Source of the DNA: a virus
Strand: one strand, 5' to 3'
Virus record (IMG/VR): IMGVR_UViG_3300005563_000031
Span: 41,785 to 105,784 of that record
DNA: 64,000 nucleotides
In this document: piece after piece, positions 3,976 through 10,899 of the stretch
Numbering within the stretch: the stretch's first letter is position 1
Layout: each line of letters starts with the position of its first letter
Position numbers and translations under genes: made by a program
Notes under the pieces: generated by a model
What the model saw: only the letters and a program-made list of their open reading frames with translations
Told to the model about the DNA's origin: nothing
The model's database searches: none

Positions 3976-4051
3976 TGGATCACCCGGATGGAATCGAACC
4001 ATCATGTACGATGTTCAAAGCATCGTTGGGATACCAGTAACCCACAGGTGA
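3976..4051 (-). tRNA. tRNA-Gln(TTG)
   Basis: cloverleaf, loop CTTTGAA, encoded CCA. Confidence 0.9.
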
Positions 4052-4054
4052 AAA

Positions 4055-4189
4055 ATGAGTCGATTTGAACGTGTGGTGATCCAACTGCTGATCATTATCG
4101 CTAATAGGGTAGCGCGCAGTGCATCACCTGCAGACAGAATAAACATCGATCACGACGGGTGGCCGATGTACGGCGACAAACCCTTTTAA
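4055..4189 (+). CDS. 44-aa hypothetical protein antisense to the tRNA array
   Basis: ATG..TAA fills the spacer between the two Gln tRNAs; AGGTG upstream. Confidence 0.45.
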   Translation: MSRFERVVIQLLIIIANRVARSASPADRINIDHDGWPMYGDKPF

Positions 4190-4190
4190 A

Positions 4191-4266
4191 TGGATCAGGC
4201 GGTTGGAATCGAACCAACGTGAACTGCGTTCAGAGCGCAGTGGGGATGCCAGCAACCCACACCTGA
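4191..4266 (-). tRNA. tRNA-Gln(CTG)
   Basis: cloverleaf, loop CTCTGAA, CCA. Confidence 0.9.
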
Positions 4267-4274
4267 GAATTTCT

Positions 4275-4457
4275 ATGACAACAGAGAAAACTGCTATTTG
4301 CGGAGCGATCCGGCCTCAAGAAAAGCCTACGTGCCGACGTTCGCAAAAGATTGGCGGGCCGCGCTATGTTTGTGGACGCGAACCGAAGCACGAGGGGCCG
4401 TGCGGCTGCTGGCGGTTTTTGTCGCAGGTCGCTGCTGCGAAATTGGCGGGAAGGTAA
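4275..4457 (+). CDS. small Cys/His-rich hypothetical protein
   Basis: MTTEK...CGREPKHEGPC; occupies the Gln-Trp spacer. Confidence 0.45.
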   Translation: MTTEKTAICGAIRPQEKPTCRRSQKIGGPRYVCGREPKHEGPCGCWRFLSQVAAAKLAGR

Positions 4458-4515
4458 GGAGTTGCACCCTACTTTTGGGGTTTGGAGTCCCATAGCTCGC
4501 TCCGAGCACCGACCC
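4444..4515 (-). tRNA. tRNA-Trp(CCA)
   Basis: loop CTCCAAA, CCA; two acceptor mismatches; T-loop TGCAACT. Confidence 0.8.
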
Positions 4516-4523
4516 GTGAAACT

Positions 4524-4886
4524 ATGCCTATCTACGGTAGTCTAACACTACGCGCACGAATACTGGCAAACGATGAGCCGGCGTGGTTGAAAAAGCACGC
4601 ACGCCGCGATTACATCGTGCAAGTACATCTTGCCACACCACGCTGGTACTCGCGTAAAGAAGTCGTACGGCTTAAGCAGAAGGCGCACGAGCTGTCGAAA
4701 GCGAAACGACGCAAGTACGTACTGGACCACATCATCCCCCTCACACACAAGCGCGTATGCGGTTTAAACGTACACCACAATATGCAAATCATCGATGCCG
4801 GCACGAATGCGCGCAAATCCAATCACTGGTGCGAGTGGCACGGGGAGTTATTCGCGGAACCTGAGCAGTTTCCACTGTTTCGATAG
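4524..4886 (+). CDS. HNH endonuclease
   Basis: ATPRW...DHIIPL...VCGLNVHHNMQII...NARKSN. Confidence 0.8.
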   Translation: MPIYGSLTLRARILANDEPAWLKKHARRDYIVQVHLATPRWYSRKEVVRLKQKAHELSKAKRRKYVLDHIIPLTHKRVCGLNVHHNMQIIDAGTNARKSNHWCEWHGELFAEPEQFPLFR

Positions 4887-4887
4887 C

Positions 4888-4972
4888 GTGCCGGGCGCCG
4901 CGTGCCCATCGGTGCTAGGAAGTTTTGTGGCCCGCAAGCGGGGAAGATTCCTACGACGGGACGCCCATGCAC
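4888..4972 (-). ncRNA. rod-like structured RNA candidate
   Basis: nested helices GGGCG/CGCCC, CCCGTCG/CGATGGG, TAGGAA/TTCCTA, CCCGC/GCGGG. Confidence 0.5.
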
Positions 4973-4974
4973 TC

Positions 4975-5063
4975 TGGCGGAAGGCAGTGAACTCGAATCA
5001 CAAACGCTTATCGCGTTCCATCCGCTTTCCAAGCGGCTCGAGGCCCTGCCTCGTTTACCTTCC
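4975..5063 (-). tRNA. tRNA-Ser(GGA)
   Basis: long variable arm, G73, CCA. Confidence 0.9.
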
Positions 5064-5068
5064 AATGT

Positions 5069-5157
5069 TGGCGGATACCGTAGGAGTCGAACCTACACGG
5101 CCCGTTAAGACCCTAACACCGCTTTCAAGGCGGGCGAGCGCGCCAGTGCGGGTATCC
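5069..5157 (-). tRNA. tRNA-Ser(TGA)
   Basis: long variable arm, loop CTTGAAA, CCA. Confidence 0.9.
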
Positions 5158-5165
5158 GAAAAGTA

Positions 5166-5223
5166 GGTGAGGCCCGGTGCAGCGGATAGCACTTGGACAG
5201 GTGCGTCCACACCGGGGGTCACC
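5166..5223 (-). ncRNA. structured RNA candidate (hairpin with possible pseudoknot)
   Basis: GGTGA/TCACC, CCCGGTG/CACCGGG, TGGAC/GTCCA; loop GCAC complementary to downstream GTGC. Confidence 0.45.
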
Positions 5224-5231
5224 GAGCAGCT

Positions 5232-5275
5232 GAACCGGAACTGCGCTTGTTCCTTACTGGCCTTTCGGCCGGTTC
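5232..5275 (-). ncRNA. three-way-junction RNA motif, copy 1
   Basis: GAACC-[GGCC GAAA GGCC]-AGTAA-[GGAAC..GTTCC]-GGTTC; 22 nt identical to copy at 6119-6140. Confidence 0.65.
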
Positions 5276-5292
5276 GTTTGCGAGTATAAGGG

Positions 5293-5383
5293 CACTTGCG
5301 CGCGGGTGCAGTCGCTTACTGCACCTTGCGTCACGACCAACGCGCAGCAGGAGCGACACTGCCGCCATGGCGTCTAGCAAGTG
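5293..5383 (-). ncRNA. multi-branch RNA with kissing loops
   Basis: closing stem CACTTGC/GCAAGTG, four internal hairpins, complementary loops TCGCT and AGCGA. Confidence 0.55.
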
Positions 5384-5388
5384 TTTTC

Positions 5389-5476
5389 TGGCGGATGGCA
5401 ATGGAGTCGAACCACAAGCGCTTGCGCACTCCATCTGTTTTCGAGGCAGTGCTGACACCGTGTCAGTTTACCATCC
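5389..5476 (-). tRNA. tRNA-Ser(CGA)
   Basis: long variable arm, loop CTCGAAA, CCA. Confidence 0.9.
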
Positions 5477-5490
5477 GTAAAATCTAAGGC

Positions 5491-5567
5491 GGTTAGGTTT
5501 AAGTAGGGGGCAAACCCTTACCCGGCGCCGGGCCCAGCATCACCGCAAGCCCCTACCAGTCTTGACC
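5491..5567. ncRNA. structured RNA candidate (strand uncertain)
   Basis: GTAGG(GG)/(CC)CCTAC closing stem; CCCGG/CCGGG and GGG/CCC hairpins. Confidence 0.35.
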
Positions 5568-5589
5568 AGCAAGTACCGGTAGGAATGTT

Positions 5590-5678
5590 TGGCGGAAAGC
5601 AGTGTACTCGAAACACACACCCGTTAGGATGCCCTCTGTTTAGCAAACAGGTACGAGCGCCTGCCCGTTTTACTTTCC
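5590..5678 (-). tRNA. tRNA-Ser(GCT)
   Basis: long variable arm, loop TTGCTAA, CCA. Confidence 0.9.
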
Positions 5679-5684
5679 GTAAAT

Positions 5685-5763
5685 TGGTCCCCGCAGCAGC
5701 TTGGGGAGCTGCGACCGTCCGGTTAAAAGCCGGATGCTCTTCACCCGTGTGAGCTATACGAGG
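5685..5763 (-). tRNA. tRNA-Lys(TTT) with non-canonical T-loop
   Basis: loop CTTTTAA, all stems intact, CCA; T-arm GCAGC-TCCCCAA-GCTGC. Confidence 0.8.
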
Positions 5764-5769
5764 AATGTT

Positions 5770-5845
5770 TGGTGCTCAGTGATGGAGTTGAACCATCTAT
5801 CTCCGCGTTACGAATGCGGCGCATCGCCGGCAATGCTTACCGAGC
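5770..5845 (-). tRNA. tRNA-Thr(CGT)
   Basis: loop TTCGTAA, CCA. Confidence 0.9.
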
Positions 5846-5945
5846 TTATCGGAATAAGAAGACTGTACCAAACATGCTCGCACCATCGGCAGCAAAACAC
5901 CGCGCGCCATCCTCGTAGTCGTTTGCCGCACTGTCTGCAGTTCAT
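5808..5945 (-). CDS. 45-aa putative zinc-finger protein
   Basis: MNCRQCGKRL...FCCRWC; 3' end overlaps tRNA-Thr. Confidence 0.35.
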   Translation of the reverse strand: MNCRQCGKRLRGWRAVFCCRWCEHVWYSLLIPISSVSIAGDAPHS

Positions 5946-5959
5946 GTTGGAATTATACA

Positions 5960-6034
5960 TGGAGCCCCACGTTGGACTTGCGCCAACCCTCGCTACTTAC
6001 AAGGCAGCTACACCGCTATCTGTGTTTGTAGGGC
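5960..6034 (-). tRNA. tRNA-Thr(TGT)
   Basis: loop CTTGTAA, CCA, T-loop CGCAAGT. Confidence 0.85.
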
Positions 6035-6042
6035 GAAAAGTA

Positions 6043-6087
6043 CCGCCGAGCCCCTGTGCACACGCAGGTATTGGAAAGGCCCGGCGG
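6043..6087 (-). ncRNA. bulged hairpin RNA candidate
   Basis: 10-bp stem CCGCCGGGCC/GGCTCGGCGG, 9-nt bulge, apical hairpin. Confidence 0.4.
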
Positions 6088-6099
6088 ATTTTGCAATTA

Positions 6100-6140
6100 G
6101 AACCAGACGCTGGCGCCTTTACTGGCCTTTCGGCCGGTTC
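6100..6140 (-). ncRNA. three-way-junction RNA motif, copy 2
   Basis: same core as 5232-5275 with a different but still pairing P3 (AGGCG/CGTCT). Confidence 0.65.
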
Positions 6141-6159
6141 AATATGCATACTAACATGT

Positions 6160-6235
6160 TGGTGCCTCACCGACGAATTGCACGTCGCGCCTCATCTTTA
6201 CCAAAGATGCGTTCCGCTCGCAGAACTTGAGAGGC
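6160..6235 (-). tRNA. tRNA-Thr(GGT)
   Basis: loop TTGGTAA, CCA. Confidence 0.9.
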
Positions 6236-6242
6236 AGTAAAT

Positions 6243-6316
6243 TGGCCTCCACGGTTGGACTCGAACCAACAACAGCAAGCCTTCGGAGGGCTCGCGCCGT
6301 ATCCGACGGCGTGGAG
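6243..6316 (-). tRNA. tRNA-Arg(CCG)
   Basis: loop CTCCGAA, short D-arm, CCA. Confidence 0.85.
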
Positions 6317-6323
6317 TTTAAAG

Positions 6324-6397
6324 TGGCACCCCCGGTTGGACTCGAACCAACATATCTGCCGTTCGTAGCGGCGGATCCTTGTTCCGAAGGCAGGGGC
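6324..6397 (-). tRNA. tRNA-Arg(ACG)
   Basis: loop CTACGAA, CCA. Confidence 0.85.
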
Positions 6398-6409
6398 GTA
6401 GAAAACTGT

Positions 6410-6474
6410 CCGGCGGCAGTAGGCGCGAGTACGGCTTGCGCTTTCGCCGCGCACTTACCTTAAAGGCCTGCCGG
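6410..6474 (-). ncRNA. structured RNA candidate
   Basis: CCGGC/GCCGG closing stem; apical CGGC-GAAAGCGCAA-GCCG. Confidence 0.4.
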
Positions 6475-6482
6475 TATGGCCG

Positions 6483-6653
6483 TTACACCGGTTTGTAAAG
6501 GGCTTGGTAGTAAAATAAATGGTTTAGCGTGTCTGAACACAGGCGCTCGCACACTGCCACACCACCGGCCAATAACCACCCTTTGTTTAGGTAGTCAGTG
6601 ACTTCGTTATTAAAGTACTGCAAGTTTGTGTTACTTACTACGATGTATTTCAA
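6483..6653 (-). CDS. DUF1737-like small protein (56 aa)
   Basis: TTG start; KYIVV...FNNEVTDYLNKGWLLAGGV...YYQAL resembles DUF1737; absent from the ORF track. Confidence 0.65.
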   Translation of the reverse strand: MKYIVVSNTNLQYFNNEVTDYLNKGWLLAGGVAVCERLCSDTLNHLFYYQALYKPV

Positions 6654-6656
6654 TGT

Positions 6657-6752
6657 TGGTACTCGATGTAGGATTTGAACCTAACCCGTTGCAGCCAGTC
6701 CGACCGCTCTCGCACGCTTATAAGGCGCACCCGCACACCAGTGCTATCGAGT
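6657..6752 (-). tRNA. tRNA with TAT anticodon (Ile) and long variable arm
   Basis: acceptor ACTCGAT/ATCGAGT, loop CTTATAA, ~27-nt variable region, A73, CCA. Confidence 0.8.
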
Positions 6753-6764
6753 ATTGCTCCTTTC

Positions 6765-6840
6765 CGAGGGGCGGCGGGCAGTGTAGTTAGCGACGCTACA
6801 CTGAGTTGGGAGCTACCCAACCAACCCCGCAGGCCCCTCG
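6765..6840 (-). ncRNA. three-way-junction RNA with kissing loops
   Basis: CGAGGGGC/GCCCCTCG plus GCGGG/CCCGC; hairpins GTTGGG/CCCAAC and CAGTGTAG/CTACACTG; loops TAGC and GCTA. Confidence 0.6.
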
Positions 6841-6850
6841 TACTTCTTTG

Positions 6851-6927
6851 TTGCGGTAGCTGGACTTGCACCAGCCTTAAATCGGCTTATGAAACCGTGG
6901 CGAAACTACCTTCGACCATATACCGCA
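6851..6927 (-). tRNA. tRNA-Met/Ile2(CAT), no encoded CCA
   Basis: loop TTCATAA, acceptor TGCGGTA/TACCGCA. Confidence 0.8.
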
Positions 6928-7099
6928 AAATTGTGCCCGCTTCGCTTTTCATTTCGTGGCAACGGACTAACACGCGGTGGCACCTATCAGCTCCCTACAT
7001 GCATGCAACGCATTTGGGCGGGGATGGAGGCAGGGGTTAGGGAATGCGCATGTCTAGAATACGCCAATACACCTAAAGCCGTACCAACACCCCCATACC

Positions 7100-7174
7100 T
7101 GGTAGCGGGAGAGGGATTCGAACCCCCGACCTTCTGGTTATGAGCCAGACGAGCTACCTCTGCTCTATCCCGCA
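7100..7174 (-). tRNA. tRNA-fMet(CAT)
   Basis: loop CTCATAA, 1:72 mismatch, CCA. Confidence 0.9.
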
Positions 7175-7183
7175 TCAAACAAT

Positions 7184-7239
7184 GCCGCGTTCCTCTTATA
7201 TACCGGATACGCGGCCAACCCGGTATTGCAATTCGAGGA
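7184..7239 (-). ncRNA. H-type pseudoknot RNA
   Basis: S1 ATACCGG/CCGGTAT, S2 GCCGCGT/ACGCGGC, loops 4/2/9 nt, purine-rich L3. Confidence 0.6.
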
Positions 7240-7314
7240 GGTGCTGTTGGGACTATCCTACAGGAGAACAAAGGACAGACCGGACTTATGGACGCTACGT
7301 GTCCCAACAGCACC
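7240..7314 (-). ncRNA. RNA closed by a perfect 14-bp terminal stem
   Basis: GGTGCTGTTGGGAC/GTCCCAACAGCACC around a 47-nt loop. Confidence 0.55.
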
Positions 7315-7344
7315 GACAACCGAACTATACAGCGAACTTTGAAT

Positions 7345-7419
7345 TGGTGCCTCGAGAAGTGCTCGCACCTTCGTATCTGGGTTTTCAGGCCAGCGCTACT
7401 CTGTCTCAGCTATCGAGGC
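7345..7419 (-). tRNA. tRNA-Phe(GAA)
   Basis: loop CTGAAAA, CCA, atypical T-loop. Confidence 0.85.
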
Positions 7420-7425
7420 AAATAC

Positions 7426-7511
7426 TGGTCCTCACGGCTGGACTTGCACCAGCACGCCGGTTAAGGCACAGCGTTCTCAACACTGCGTGTCTGCTGTTTC
7501 ACCACGCGAGG
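7426..7511 (-). tRNA. tRNA-Leu(GAG)
   Basis: long variable arm, loop TTGAGAA, CCA. Confidence 0.9.
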
Positions 7512-7518
7512 AATAGTT

Positions 7519-7767
7519 TCAACGGATCGTTTCAATAGTCTTACCATCCTCGTTCATAATGTAGGCGACGTTGTAGGAACAGGACTGGTCCATTCCCACT
7601 GTTACCTCTGTAGTTTCACCCGGTGCGTCGCCGCACTGTATAACCGCGCACAAGTTTTCCTTGTACGTTACGTGGACGGCTTTCGCCTCACGCACTGATA
7701 TCGCTTCTGTGTATGAGGGCTTAGCGGGCGCTTCTGGCCCGTACTTATAGAATTTTACTGTCAACAT
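7519..7767 (-). CDS. hypothetical protein
   Basis: ORF fills a tRNA spacer; C-terminal AYIMNEDGKTIETI. Confidence 0.75.
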   Translation of the reverse strand: MLTVKFYKYGPEAPAKPSYTEAISVREAKAVHVTYKENLCAVIQCGDAPGETTEVTVGMDQSCSYNVAYIMNEDGKTIETIR

Positions 7768-7797
7768 AGTCTACTCGTCCTACTACTGCTAAGAAAC

Positions 7798-7881
7798 TGG
7801 TACCTCTGGTGAGAGTTGCACTCACACACCTTGCGGCGCCGGAATTTGAAGCCGGTGCGTCTGCTGTTCCGCCACAGAGGC
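7798..7881 (-). tRNA. tRNA-Leu(CAA)
   Basis: loop TTCAAAT, variable arm, CCA. Confidence 0.9.
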
Positions 7882-7887
7882 AAAAGT

Positions 7888-7964
7888 TGGTATCCCCGGC
7901 GGGAGTTGCACCCGCAGTTGAACGGATTTTAAGTCCGCTGTGTCTGCTATTCCACCACGAGGAT
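7888..7964 (-). tRNA. tRNA-Leu(TAA) with short variable loop
   Basis: loop CTTAAAA, 77 nt, CCA. Confidence 0.85.
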
Positions 7965-7967
7965 GAA

Positions 7968-8038
7968 TGGGCACCCACGGTTGGAGTCGAACCAACGCTG
8001 GTAGCTTAGGAGGCCACTTTCGTTCCGCCGACGTGGGT
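7968..8038 (-). tRNA. tRNA-Arg(CCT)
   Basis: loop CTCCTAA, shortened D-arm, 3' end GCCCA. Confidence 0.75.
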
Positions 8039-8039
8039 A

Positions 8040-8201
8040 TCACAGATGAACAGTACCTGCGACTACGGTAATGGCGAGGATAAGGCAGATCAGCAGCACC
8101 GCAATGTGCAGCAGTGGGCCCGGTTTGCCTATCATCGACATGATCGTGATGATCGCAGCGGCGATCAAAAATACGAGAACGAGAATTGCAGCAGCACTCA
8201 T
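8040..8201 (-). CDS. 53-aa two-TM membrane protein
   Basis: AAGGAG SD; two hydrophobic helices. Confidence 0.7.
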   Translation of the reverse strand: MSAAAILVLVFLIAAAIITIMSMIGKPGPLLHIAVLLICLILAITVVAGTVHL

Positions 8202-8259
8202 GTTGGAAACTCCTTTTCTAACACGGGTGGGCGGTAGCAAGTAACGCTCCCGACACAGC

Positions 8260-8332
8260 TGGCACCCTCGGTTGGAGTCGAACCAACAGTCTGCGGCTTA
8301 GAAGGCGCGCTACCGATCCGGCCGGCGAGGGC
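8260..8332 (-). tRNA. tRNA-Arg(TCT)
   Basis: loop CTTCTAA, CCA. Confidence 0.8.
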
Positions 8333-8338
8333 GAAGGG

Positions 8339-8410
8339 TGGAGCGGAAAATGGGAGTCGAACCCATCAGCGGCGTCGTTGGCAACGATACCTCACACCAT
8401 GTGCATCCGC
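8339..8410 (-). tRNA. tRNA-Gly(GCC)
   Basis: loop TTGCCAA, U73, CCA. Confidence 0.85.
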
Positions 8411-8418
8411 ATGTTCAG

Positions 8419-8556
8419 TTCTTTCGTCCGTCCCACTGTTGCATTATGGGCAACCACCCGAGAGGATTTGCCGCTACCTCTGACATCTCCCACTTAAAGG
8501 AGGGAGCGCTCTGGTGCTCTGAGCTACGAGTGTTATCAACAGTCGCCACGAAAGAA
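8419..8556 (-). ncRNA. stalked tRNA-like RNA 1 (core 8454-8533)
   Basis: D-arm GCTC/GAGC, 10-nt anticodon loop, 11-nt T-loop, no CCA; flanks pair ACTGTTG/CAACAGT and TTCTTTCGT/ACGAAAGAA. Confidence 0.7.
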
Positions 8557-8558
8557 TT

Positions 8559-8634
8559 TGGTGCATGCTGTTGGATTCGAACCAACTGCCTCCCGGTTAT
8601 CAGCCGGGTGCGCATCCGTATGTGCCTCGCATGC
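8559..8634 (-). tRNA. tRNA-Ile(GAT)
   Basis: loop CTGATAA, CCA. Confidence 0.9.
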
Positions 8635-8643
8635 GAAATAGAT

Positions 8644-8744
8644 GTGGGTATTTGTCCGGCACCCACCGAGCCGTGCGGCTATTGCAGCGTAACCGCGACA
8701 CCTCCAGCGCTTGCATTGGCACTGGACCGGGCCGTTAAAGGTGT
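8644..8744 (-). ncRNA. multi-hairpin RNA candidate
   Basis: TCCAGTGC/GCGCTGGA, AGCCG/CGGCT, GTGGGT/ACCCAC, ACACC/GGTGT. Confidence 0.35.
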
Positions 8745-8856
8745 AGTGAAGTAGGATGTTTGGATTTGCACCAAGACCTCTGTTATTCCGCACGTCTGCG
8801 GATTCGACAGTGCTCTTCTATGACTGAGCTAACACCCTACATATTCACTATACCTT
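8738..8856 (-). ncRNA. stalked tRNA-like RNA 2 (core 8752-8839, no anticodon loop)
   Basis: 8-bp acceptor, 4-bp T-stem, D-arm; anticodon arm replaced by long hairpin; flanks pair TAGTGAA/TTCACTA and AAGGT/ACCTT. Confidence 0.7.
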
Positions 8857-8861
8857 GAAGT

Positions 8862-8936
8862 TGGTCGGAGTAGTAGGAATCGAACCTACCTTGTCGTGCT
8901 CCCAAAGCACGCGATCAGCCACTGACCCACACTCCG
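8862..8936 (-). tRNA. tRNA-Pro(TGG)
   Basis: loop TTTGGGA, C1-G72, CCA. Confidence 0.9.
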
Positions 8937-8993
8937 ATGGCGAGTGTCTCTCCGCTCCTGTCACGCCTGGATCGCCCGGCGTTCGGCATTGGC

Positions 8994-9071
8994 TGGTGCG
9001 GGTAGCAGGATTTGAACCTACGGCCCCGTGCGCCCGAGGCACGTGCTCTGACCAGACTGAGCTATACCCAC
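8994..9071 (-). tRNA. tRNA-Pro(CGG)
   Basis: loop CTCGGGC, CCA; G1-C72 instead of C1-G72. Confidence 0.85.
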
Positions 9072-9081
9072 ATGTTAGAAT

Positions 9082-9158
9082 TGGAGCACCCGGCCGGACT
9101 TGCACCGACGATTTTAACGCTTTGCAGGCGCCTGCATTTGCTGCTCTGCCACGGGTGC
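9082..9158 (-). tRNA. tRNA-Cys(GCA)
   Basis: loop CTGCAAA, U73, CCA. Confidence 0.9.
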
Positions 9159-9162
9159 GTGT

Positions 9163-9236
9163 TGGAGGGTCGTAATGGAGTCGAACCATTTATGGAGTCC
9201 GGTCACAGCGGAGTCCGGCTACCGAGCCAACGGCCC
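9163..9236 (-). tRNA. tRNA-His(GTG), atypical
   Basis: loop CTGTGAC, CCA; no G-1, U73. Confidence 0.75.
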
Positions 9237-9243
9237 ATTGTTT

Positions 9244-9327
9244 GTGCCTTCCCGCGCACGGCTTGCGGCCGGTCGATCGCGTGGCGCGAGTCACGGCGCA
9301 CTCCGAGGTGCGCTGGGCTTGATCGAC
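9244..9327 (-). ncRNA. structured RNA candidate
   Basis: GTCGATC/GATCGAC, GCGCAC/GTGCGC, CGGC-CGCAA-GCCG. Confidence 0.45.
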
Positions 9328-9332
9328 AAAGT

Positions 9333-9420
9333 TGGTACCTCTGGAGGGAATTGCACCCCCATGCCGTTTTACGGGCGCTGCGGTCTGAACGCAGTGTGTC
9401 TTCTGTTTCACCACAGAGGC
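9333..9420 (-). tRNA. tRNA-Leu(CAG)
   Basis: long variable arm, loop TTCAGAC, CCA. Confidence 0.9.
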
Positions 9421-9429
9421 AAAATGAGC

Positions 9430-9561
9430 ATTAGGACAGTGCGCTGGTGCCGCGTTGGCATTCGCGCAAACCTCCGTTAGACAGCGCTATCTAACATCAT
9501 CGATCCTGCTTTATACAGCTTGCATAGCCCCACTCGATATGGGACACGGCACTGTCCTAAT
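9430..9561 (-). ncRNA. 132-nt multi-branch RNA closed by a perfect 13-bp stem
   Basis: ATTAGGACAGTGC/GCACTGTCCTAAT; internal hairpins; loop ATCGA complementary to TCGAT. Confidence 0.6.
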
Positions 9562-9562
9562 T

Positions 9563-9637
9563 TGGTAGACCGTACGGGATTCGAACCCGCCTAACATGCT
9601 TGAAAGGCACGTTGCATCACCGAGACGCATACGGTCC
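9563..9637 (-). tRNA. tRNA-Glu(TTC)
   Basis: loop CTTTCAA, CCA. Confidence 0.9.
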
Positions 9638-9648
9638 GTAAAATTTAA

Positions 9649-9789
9649 GTGGCTCTGGCGCATAGGGGTACTCGTGTGAGGCGCATGCGCCACTGGCGGA
9701 GACAGGTACCTGGCACGACTTACGCACCGTTGCTGCGTCGTAACCTGCGCTGGCTTGCCAGGCGAGAGCGGTCTGTGCGGCAGAGCTAC
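9649..9789 (-). ncRNA. ~140-nt structured RNA candidate
   Basis: GTAGCTCTG/CAGAGCCAC, CCTGGC/GCCAGG, ACGAC/GTCGT, TGGCGCATG/TATGCGCCA. Confidence 0.5.
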
Positions 9790-9812
9790 TAAGTATACCG
9801 CACGACAAACAC

Positions 9813-9890
9813 TGGTAGACGTGACGAGACTCTAACTCGTTAGGCTACGGTTGAGAACCGCACTGCGCGAGACACTTTGCATTCACGTCC
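9813..9890 (-). tRNA. tRNA-Glu(CTC)
   Basis: loop TTCTCAA, CCA. Confidence 0.85.
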
Positions 9891-9898
9891 ATAAAAAT

Positions 9899-9970
9899 TG
9901 GTGGAGCTGTCGGGAGTTGAACCCGCAGGGTTTCCTTGCAAGGGAGACCCGTTGCCCGCAACACAACCCC
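9899..9970 (-). tRNA. tRNA-Ala(TGC)
   Basis: G3:U70, loop CTTGCAA, CCA. Confidence 0.9.
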
Positions 9971-9986
9971 GTGGTTCTTTGGTCTA

Positions 9987-10053
9987 GCCCAACATCTGAC
10001 GGCTGGGCAGGCGCACATAACAGCAACGTCACCGGTAATTAACTGCTACATGT
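9987..10053 (-). ncRNA. two-hairpin kissing-loop RNA candidate
   Basis: TAGCAG/TTGCTG and GCCCAGC/GTTGGGC hairpins; loops TGACG and CGTCA. Confidence 0.5.
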
Positions 10054-10072
10054 TGATCGCTTTTCGACTTAC

Positions 10073-10148
10073 TGGTAGGCCGCCAGGGATTCGAACCCTG
10101 GACCAACTGGTTAAGAGCCAGCTGCTCTTGCCGCTGAGCTAGCGACCT
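10073..10148 (-). tRNA. tRNA-Lys(CTT)
   Basis: canonical cloverleaf, loop CTCTTAA, CCA. Confidence 0.95.
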
Positions 10149-10156
10149 ATAAAGTT

Positions 10157-10244
10157 ACGCTTCCGGTCATCTGCGCCGAATATCCCGTGGGCTAGTACCC
10201 ACATGCTACAGGACATGGACGGGCGTACAGAGCCGGACTTGCGT
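10157..10244 (-). ncRNA. stalked two-hairpin RNA with possible pseudoknot
   Basis: ACGC/GCGT, TCCGG/CCGGA, TCTG/CAGA, CGCC/GGCG; loop TCCTG vs CGGGA. Confidence 0.5.
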
Positions 10245-10246
10245 TC

Positions 10247-10337
10247 TGGTGCGTCGCGGATGGAATCGAACCTCGTGCCCTAAAGGGACCTGGTTTACAG
10301 CCAGGCGAGCGGCCACCACTCCTTACTTGCGCAACGC
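10247..10337 (-). tRNA. tRNA-Tyr(GTA)
   Basis: loop CTGTAAA, long variable arm, CCA. Confidence 0.85.
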
Positions 10338-10342
10338 ATGGT

Positions 10343-10414
10343 TGGTACCCGATGTGAGGATTGAACTCACTCCACCAACTTTGTAGGAGTCGGCGCCGTC
10401 CCAACGGTCCGGGC
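10343..10414 (-). tRNA. tRNA-Val(TAC)
   Basis: loop CCTACAA (C33), CCA. Confidence 0.8.
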
Positions 10415-10420
10415 ATAAAC

Positions 10421-10648
10421 AAAAAGGATGACAATAGGCGTGCATCAGACGCCTCGTTTTACGTCACGGCTCGCGCCGCTTGGCTAGCTGCTCGCAGGTG
10501 GTCCGTAGACCACCATTTTCGTCACCGCTTCTACCAGCGGCTCCTCGAACGTCGTTAGGCCGACTACCCAGCCAATTCTCGTATCCTCAAAAATCGTTGA
10601 CGACCTATTTTTTATCGTGGTCAGCCGTCAGTGTTTTCCAGTCCTTTT
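10421..10648 (-). ncRNA. ~230-nt large structured RNA candidate
   Basis: terminal AAAAGGA/TCCTTTT, ACGGCT/AGCCGT, TTGGCTGG/CTAGCCAA, GGTGGTC-TACG-GACCACC, AGGCGT/ACGCCT, CCGCT/AGCGG. Confidence 0.6.
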
Positions 10649-10720
10649 TGGCGCCTCCAACGGGACTCGAACCCGTCACCCACTCGATAGACAGTCGAGT
10701 TTCACCCCAGGTGTAGAGGC
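10649..10720 (-). tRNA. tRNA-Asp(GTC)
   Basis: loop CTGTCTA, G73, CCA. Confidence 0.85.
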
Positions 10721-10736
10721 AGGTTCTAACACTTAG

Positions 10737-10810
10737 CTGTAGGCCTGGGGCTCGAACCCAGCGCATCTCCGTTAACAGCGGAGCCTACACGCCCGGTGCA
10801 GTTGCCTACA
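10737..10810 (-). tRNA. tRNA-Asn(GTT), no CCA, acceptor extended by leader-trailer stalk (10725-10823)
   Basis: loop CTGTTAA, G73; flanks TCTAACACTT/AAGTGTTAGA. Confidence 0.85.
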
Positions 10811-10825
10811 GCAAAGTGTTAGATT

Positions 10826-10899
10826 TGGAGCGGACGGTGGGAATCAAACCCACCTCATTGCGTTGGAAGCGCAAGGCCCAGTCACTAGACCACGCCCGC
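10826..10899 (-). tRNA. tRNA-Gly(TCC)
   Basis: loop CTTCCAA, U73, CCA; first tRNA of the operon. Confidence 0.9.

Follow-up and report, generated by a model that had tools for sequence, protein, structure and literature searches.

Within a transfer RNA (tRNA) operon of an uncultured phage from soil, a stalked tRNA-like element of 119 nucleotides (nt) was identified at positions 8738–8856, minus strand, of the window analyzed here, that is, the 64-kb (64,000-nt) right-hand part of the 105,784-bp IMG/VR virus record IMGVR_UViG_3300005563_000031, which is rated complete. Our analysis revealed that this element is derived from a tRNA, does not decode, and forms an optional unit within the operon. 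The features that serve decoding and charging have been swapped for structure: a hairpin stands in for the anticodon loop, and a stalk formed by leader and trailer stands in for the discriminator-CCA and the free termini. We tentatively favor, with a confidence somewhat short of even, the reading that the element arose from a phage tRNA gene, no longer decodes, and is an optional and self-contained cassette that may have retained an accessory role as a mimic.

A tRNA body with its decoding and charging parts replaced

All the helices listed in a preliminary description of this DNA are present in the sequence of the minus strand, and the tRNA-shaped RNA that it had proposed, carried on a stalk and lacking both an anticodon loop and CCA, can be seen there. 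From the 5′ end, the element begins with an outer stalk of 5 bp (8852–8856 with 8738–8742) and an inner stalk of 7 bp (8844–8850 with 8744–8750), separated by a 1 × 1 mismatch (8851 opposite 8743); all three are evident in the sequence and in the minimum-energy fold. At the junction of stalk and acceptor, the minimum-energy fold places a 3-nt bulge (8841–8843), the sole single-stranded break on the 5′ side. The 5′ strand of the acceptor helix follows (8832–8840), its 9 nt pairing with 8751–8759 at what correspond to tRNA positions −2 to 7; an 8-bp portion (8832–8839 with 8752–8759) includes the one G-U pair, and G8840:C8751 brings the helix to 9 bp. The D arm (8812–8829) consists of a 4-bp stem (8826–8829 with 8812–8815) and a 10-nt loop, and aligns to the D arm of a covariance model that we built from 40 ordinary G55-type phage tRNAs (model R1). 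Its loop (8816–8825) contains no GG and carries AG in place of the usual G18 G19.

The anticodon arm has given way to a substitute (8780–8810), which is delimited by the sequence, the fold, and model R1 alike. It comprises a basal stem of 4 bp (8807–8810 with 8780–8783), a 4 × 3 internal loop, and a hairpin of 6 perfect base pairs with a 4-nt loop (8787–8802), the 7-nt loop of a tRNA being absent. The remainder of the body is regular: a 5-nt variable loop (8775–8779) that matches the subtype consensus exactly is followed by a T arm (8760–8774) with a 4-bp stem (8771–8774 with 8760–8763) and a 7-nt loop, TGCAAAT (8764–8770), which has G at position 55. The 3′ strand of the acceptor (8751–8759) then continues directly, without discriminator-CCA, into the 3′ arms of the stalk (8738–8750; 7 bp, one unpaired nucleotide, and 5 bp). 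The absence of CCA noted in the preliminary description is thereby borne out, as is the extension of the acceptor by 7 + 5 bp of paired flanks. Since there is no 7-nt loop, no U33, and no discriminator-CCA, and since the ends are paired, the element is unable to decode or be charged as it stands.

The terminal inverted repeat of the element has arms of ~25 nt with 21 matches, and the ~41 base pairs of the whole are all intact. Stalk and acceptor together form a nearly continuous helix of ~22 bp, interrupted by the one mismatch and the 3-nt bulge. The 119-nt RNA folds at −44.9 kcal/mol, compared with −25.5 ± 3.4 kcal/mol for 200 dinucleotide shuffles, none of which was as good (z −5.7), and the 90-nt core alone reaches a z of −4.3. 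The cloverleaf on its stalk, at −43.3 kcal/mol, lies 1.6 kcal/mol above the minimum free energy; the minimum-energy fold retains the stalk, the acceptor, and the hairpin, with the D and T regions paired otherwise. The 8/4 acceptor/T geometry of the preliminary description stands insofar as its helices exist, but it can be read equally well as a 7/5 split with a C-A mismatch at 49:65 and extra pairs at −1:73 (U-A) and −2:74 (G-C).

Model R1 matched 8751–8838 over the full length of the model (positions 1–75) with 41.4 bits and an E value of ~2e-9 in 8 kb, the sixth best match in the array, and the mismatch was limited to the anticodon loop, where a local insert of 23 nt takes the place of nine model positions. 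A scan of IMG/VR for a T arm of this type returned >117 loci (106 after removal of redundancy), of which 65 were called ordinary tRNAs by ARAGORN with its default settings. These 65 comprise 43 of the type tRNA-Met(CAT), with Ile, Arg, Thr, Gly, Phe, and His included among the others; a D loop without GG and with AG instead was present in 58 of the 65. In the array itself, the CCA-bearing tRNAs for Leu, Cys, and Thr combine an AG D loop with a closely similar G55 T loop (TGCAA). Judged by sequence, the elbow nucleotides of the element are those of a working phage tRNA variant, and the retention of the D/T elbow that had been proposed is upheld in the form found in many real phage tRNAs. A decayed elbow, with G18 G19 and U55 missing, was considered and rejected, as the combination is normal in phage tRNAs. 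Because this subtype departs from the textbook elbow in its TGCAAAT T loop and its D loop without GG, the Rfam models are blind to the element. As a separate observation, the pairing of a G55 T loop with an AG D loop looks like a covarying alternative elbow that is widespread in phages (loci L108–L223) and of which we found no description.

The closest single sequence to the element is a tRNA-His(GTG) (L122:1528–1603) in an apparently unrelated IMG/VR contig; if the acceptor stem and anticodon loop are set aside, the two are ~90% identical. They are almost the same in the D arm, anticodon stem, variable loop, and T arm, and both have an 8-bp acceptor, a 4-bp T stem, and the 49:65 mismatch. Unlike this tRNA-His, the element has no 7-nt anticodon loop, GTG, or CCA, and its ends are sealed by the stalk. 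The hallmarks of tRNA-His, namely the extra pair G-1:C73 and the GTG anticodon, are likewise absent, the −1:73 pair being U-A in the element and G-C in the tRNA-His. The preliminary description had drawn a parallel to allo-tRNAs for the geometry; since the phage tRNA-His already has the same acceptor and T-stem lengths, that parallel is unneeded, and the 8/4 split appears from the sequence comparison to be an inherited tRNA-His-like trait and not an allo-tRNA trait. For the allo-tRNAs, Mukai et al. reportedly described in 2017 folds of the 8/4 or 9/3 type, together with a long variable arm, an anticodon loop that works, and charging. The element resembles them in its 12–13-bp acceptor/T stack split 8/4 (or 9/4), whereas its variable loop is of 5 nt and it possesses neither an anticodon loop nor CCA. 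Its body thus belongs to a widespread phage tRNA subtype, and the earlier proposal of a new class is not supported.

The covariance-model searches suggested in the preliminary description returned no match on 8738–8856, even at E ≤ 10, with the Rfam models for tRNA (RF00005), transfer-messenger RNA (tmRNA; RF00023), or YrlA (RF02553), and the mascRNA model gave no match on the element either. ARAGORN calls the element only if the threshold is set to 80%, and the anticodon arms that it then proposes are nonsensical. For tmRNA, CCA is also missing and no tag peptide was called by ARAGORN; for YrlA, weak sub-threshold matches occur elsewhere in the phage genome. In YrlA, the stem joining the two ends takes the place of the anticodon arm, and a closed stem-loop resembling an acceptor lies between the T and D arms (PMC4201824, Chen et al. 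2014). The element is similar to YrlA (PMC4201824) in that a non-decoding tRNA-like domain, made of a D arm, a T arm, and an acceptor-like stem, is set on an end-to-end stem. Unlike in YrlA, its stalk extends the acceptor, its closed hairpin is located at the anticodon position, and the phage is without TROVE (Ro60/Rsr), for which the full 105,784-bp sequence gave no match at E ≤ 1. The tRNA-like processing signals, that is, the t-elements of plant mitochondria (PMC1920247) and the mascRNA of MALAT1, are also non-decoding and tRNA-shaped; these lie in longer transcripts, where their role is to be recognized by tRNA end-processing enzymes (PMC1920247 for t-elements), and their acceptor ends are accessible, whereas that of the element is sealed by the stalk.

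Presence, absence, and look-alikes in other phages

Logan contigs from four public runs holding the operon were compared with window positions 7900–9700. In run X5, a soil metagenome of 2024 other than the source, a 1,401-nt contig (depth 5.4) is collinear with the window at ~90–95% identity in the flanks, and this contig and a second one from the same run together display three clean gaps. At the element, 31 letters of the 1,401-nt contig, a diverged version of window positions 8703–8733, connect 8705 to 8855, so that the missing unit amounts to 121 nt, 8734–8854 or 8736–8856 (the ends being ambiguous by 2 nt), and coincides with the stalked element give or take 2 nt. The same contig is without 8411–8556, the unit termed stalked tRNA-like RNA 1 in the preliminary description, and the second X5 contig is without 9424–9561, a spacer closed by a 13-bp helix; at each of the three gaps the tRNAs are 5–7 nt apart. 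The element is hence a discrete unit that has been either inserted or deleted whole, its edges coinciding with the foot of the stalk.

The comparison is trustworthy because selection is visible where function is expected. A 53-codon open reading frame in the array (8201–8040, minus strand) differs from its counterpart in the X5 contig at nine positions, eight of which are third codon positions and seven synonymous, and in the tRNA at 8340–8411 two T-stem pairs are changed on both sides, i.e. in a compensatory manner. Owing to this concentration of differences at the third codon position, the reading frame is very probably a real gene, predicted to encode a small membrane protein; its product is very hydrophobic, a Shine-Dalgarno-like site is present, and its 3′ end overlaps tRNA-Arg(CCT).

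Searches for further copies of the element were uniformly negative. There is no second copy in the phage genome, where the hairpin and stalk motifs are unique; blastn against 50,697 phage records gave no match to the element; and neither IMG/VR nor a set of 185,579 prokaryote species, each represented by one genome, yielded a copy when searched with DNA patterns of the element, whether exact or degenerate. The three matches obtained in the species genomes represent a single insertion-sequence end in Acidipropionibacterium, with no second arm, and are a chance match. Scans of IMG/VR with single tail and portal proteins revealed no relatives of the phage, and those obtained with a profile scan share no more than 61% portal identity and carry no tRNAs. 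Relatives identified by the tail protein in JGI metagenomes (33–54% identity) have no array downstream of the tail gene, and an IMG/VR relative of 107.7 kb has only three tRNA-like genes, at the contig end. The closest protein relatives were found in Logan assemblies only, with portal proteins 96% and 77% identical and tail proteins 79% and 65% identical. An absence of conservation among relatives is what the preliminary description had said would refute its reading; the X5 contig is without the whole element, and no orthologue was found.

Two other units of the array invite comparison with the element. The unit at 8419–8556 (minus strand) scores 39.6 bits with model R1 and has a 10-nt anticodon loop, no CCA, and a stalk of 9 + 7 bp. 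The spacer RNA at 9430–9561 (minus strand) is closed by a perfect 13-bp helix (z −3.95), bears no obvious likeness to a tRNA, and is replaced by a single base in the related contig, where tRNA-Glu and tRNA-Leu are then 5 nt apart. The termini of the three indel units are unrelated to one another. A wider claim of the preliminary description, that most spacers of the array are closed by terminal helices, did not rise above shuffled controls in two crude tests.

Among the non-redundant T-arm matches, ~12 independent loci in unrelated phages are tRNA look-alikes that belong to the G55 subtype, lack CCA, and are abnormal in the middle. L143 and G006:1075–1134 (the latter also listed as L239:1075–1134, minus strand) have no anticodon arm, and in L201 the arm is cut down to a 3-nt loop on a 4-bp stem; plain hairpins take its place in L103, L097, and L106, and long inserts do so in L124 and the trio L130, L146, and L195. 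In this trio (L130:13466–13560, minus strand; L146:14466–14566, plus strand; L195:8454–8553, plus strand) the body is 100% identical while the flanks are unalignable and the inserts differ, an identity that is hard to explain without selection on the body or its recent transfer. Strongly pairing flanks were seen in only one other case in the IMG/VR sample, a tRNA-Met(CAT)-like locus without CCA (L217:2258–2332, minus strand) whose acceptor runs unbroken into a perfect leader–trailer helix of 11 bp; the anticodon-less look-alikes of phage tRNAs do not have a stalk in common. Beside these, a family of phage tRNA-like genes with CCACCA-like tails (L117, L140, L144, L200, L202, and L208) carries a 40–50-nt insert of two hairpins in the D loop, the sequences of which differ among members while the pairing is kept.

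The RNAs C and D of phage T4 (rnaC and rnaD; species 1 and 2 RNAs) offer the nearest established parallel in kind. They are non-decoding and, like the element, are encoded in a tRNA cluster, on the tRNA strand, and beside tRNA genes, with sizes of 139 and 119 nt compared with 119 nt for the element; we know of no function for either. In its fold, T4 rnaC is closed by a terminal helix, carries a canonical T arm toward the 3′ end, and has long hairpins where an anticodon arm would be; this fold is very stable (z −4.6). The element is far more tRNA-like than either T4 RNA, having a complete D arm, variable loop, and acceptor. The T4 RNAs are known to be processed and stable, properties that are putative in the element. 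Neither T4 RNA gave a blastn match to the element or a match to model R1 at E ≤ 1; the likeness is one of kind and not of family.

The tRNA operon and its surroundings

The phage is siphovirus-like, encoding a portal, a tape-measure protein, tail proteins, and an endolysin of siphovirus type, and its closest cultured relatives are Brevundimonas phages, with 41% portal identity. Window positions 3976–10899 constitute a single minus-strand tRNA operon of ~7 kb, in which ARAGORN called 23 tRNAs at default settings; looser ARAGORN settings, Rfam, and model R1 added further ones. CCA is present at the called 3′ end in 27 of the 30 tRNA calls of the array that were checked, and just beyond it in one more. 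The element lies 5 nt downstream of tRNA-Pro(TGG) and ~100 nt upstream of tRNA-Ile(GAT), with no promoter-like or terminator-like sites within window positions 8300–9300. No RNA run is listed among the public sequencing runs containing the element DNA.

Several additional features of the region were recorded. Two CCA-ended tRNAs, at 8340–8411 and 5962–6034 (both minus strand), were missed by default ARAGORN and by Rfam, the latter tRNA scoring 35.9 bits with model R1. A further CCA-ended tRNA (8260–8332, minus strand) was assigned a two-base "anticodon" by ARAGORN, that is, an undersized anticodon loop, and is the same in the related contig. Converging on the end of the operon, a plus-strand gene at 908–2143 encodes a product whose N-terminal half is an HD domain (RelA/SpoT-type hydrolase) and whose C-terminal half is weakly von Willebrand A-like (phrog_7371); the next gene is GH5 cellulase-like.

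Origin and possible role of the element

If the element is a cassette with an accessory role, it would be co-transcribed with the tRNAs of the operon, and the coaxial stalk–acceptor helix of ~22 bp, or the bulge at its junction, would be the cut site of host double-strand-specific or tRNA-end-processing nucleases. A helix of this length is in the size class cut by double-strand-specific RNases, and the bulge could offer RNase P a helix end that gives a 9/4 (13-bp) acceptor/T stack. The released RNA, of 90–120 nt, would expose only the "top half" of a tRNA, namely the acceptor/T helix and the D/T elbow, and, if active, might serve as a mimic of or a competitor for proteins reading the top-half surface, and not in translation. 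We rate such a retained role as somewhat more likely than pure decay, because all ~41 bp are preserved, along with every loop nucleotide conserved in the subtype, whereas replacement has affected precisely what serves decoding and charging, and because the pattern recurs at 8419–8556 and in other phages. A broader proposition, that non-decoding top-half mimics with or without a stalk make up an undescribed functional class, exchanged between phage tRNA operons, released by the host, and acting as decoys or competitors, seems unlikely to us; the targets of such decoys would be host readers of the tRNA body or elbow, e.g. tRNA-targeting defense nucleases and tRNA-processing or modification enzymes.

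A number of observations weigh against the accessory role. The close relative in run X5 does without the element, which is dispensable at least there; the element is single-copy and unique, and the failure to find an orthologue means that neither covariation nor conservation speaks for it. Nothing among the phage proteins corresponds to an RNase III, CCA-adding enzyme, RtcB, or Ro60 that might serve as a dedicated partner, and RNase P should be impeded by a stalk sealing the acceptor end. Phage arrays commonly contain pseudo-tRNAs, and the companion at 8419–8556, with a 4-nt insert in its T loop and a fold no better than shuffles (z −0.8), looks more like decay.

Absence from a close relative and lack of an orthologue fit equally well with a dead gene, and we regard it as a serious possibility, though one that we would not expect to prove correct, that a tRNA-His-like gene of the operon was remodeled by palindrome-building mutation, for instance through template switching at the acceptor inverted repeat and insertion of a hairpin in the anticodon loop, and is now neutral DNA in the course of deletion with a transcript that has no role. 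Everything needed for tRNA function has been lost, there is no second copy, two other spacer units are absent from the same relative despite its 90–95% flank identity, the companion unit has disrupted loops and an unremarkable folding energy, and long quasi-palindromes are prone to deletion, which would explain the position of the indel edges at the foot of the stalk. Set against this, the helices and conserved loops display no point-mutational decay although the flanks differ by 5–10% from the relative; the route would require several independent rare events, each falling on decoding or charging features and each leaving a perfect helix, with the same outcome twice in one array; and anticodon-less relatives occur in other phages, in one case with a perfectly conserved body. 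We consider it rather improbable that the element is a processing or insulating spacer, a self-folding unit whose double-stranded foot is cut by host nucleases, which avoids mispairing with the pre-tRNAs, and whose tRNA-like interior is incidental. Its location 5 nt after tRNA-Pro inside a ~7-kb operon, the ~22-bp near-continuous helix of stalk and acceptor, and the helix-closed unit at 9430–9561, also absent from the relative, are what such a spacer would lead one to expect, but the relative manages the same tRNAs with spacers of 5–7 nt and no such units, terminal closing helices are no commoner across the array than in shuffled spacers by the two crude tests, and the retention of conserved D- and T-loop nucleotides is left unexplained.

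The remaining two explanations carry little weight. A miniature inverted-repeat mobile element residing between tRNA genes, with the stalk as its terminal inverted repeat, would account for the ~25-nt arms with 21 matches and for a presence/absence boundary that falls exactly at the ends; the repeat at the junction is, however, an ambiguous one of 2 nt, a single copy exists in the phage and none in IMG/VR or the 185,579 species genomes, and the other two indel units have unrelated termini. The case for a transposable element is accordingly weak, and weakly refuted, and we hold it to be very improbable. That the element is a real decoding tRNA, from which an insert of 16–23 nt is removed after transcription and to which the host adds CCA, is scarcely credible. 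Excision of the 16-nt hairpin on paper does leave a 7-nt loop on a 4-bp stem, and the rest of the body is tRNA-like. This loop would nonetheless be without U33; no archaeal-type bulge-helix-bulge intron or kink-turn was recognized by eye in the anticodon-arm substitute, and a group I intron, to our knowledge the only type of tRNA intron in bacteria, would need far more sequence than the insert provides. The −1:73 pair is U-A and not the G-C of tRNA-His, the 3′ strand enters a 12-bp stalk and not a trailer, nearly all ordinary tRNAs of the array encode CCA, and the phage has no RtcB-type ligase.

The element is therefore best placed as a variant among the non-tRNA small RNA genes and pseudo-tRNAs of phage tRNA clusters, and a new class is not demonstrated. 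Small stable RNAs that are not tRNAs, such as the RNAs C and D of T4, have been known in these clusters for fifty years with their role unexplained, and the element provides an unusually clean case, in which the tRNA body is complete, only the decoding and charging parts are replaced by helices, and the whole is a removable cassette between near-identical phages. Should it be functional, such units would be RNA counterparts of the variable accessory genes that phages use against host defenses, and would give a handle on the host proteins that read the tRNA elbow during infection. Should it be only a remodeled dead gene, it would be a record of the turnover of tRNA arrays, and would even then make plain why an entire subtype of tRNA-like genes in phages escapes both Rfam and tRNA finders.

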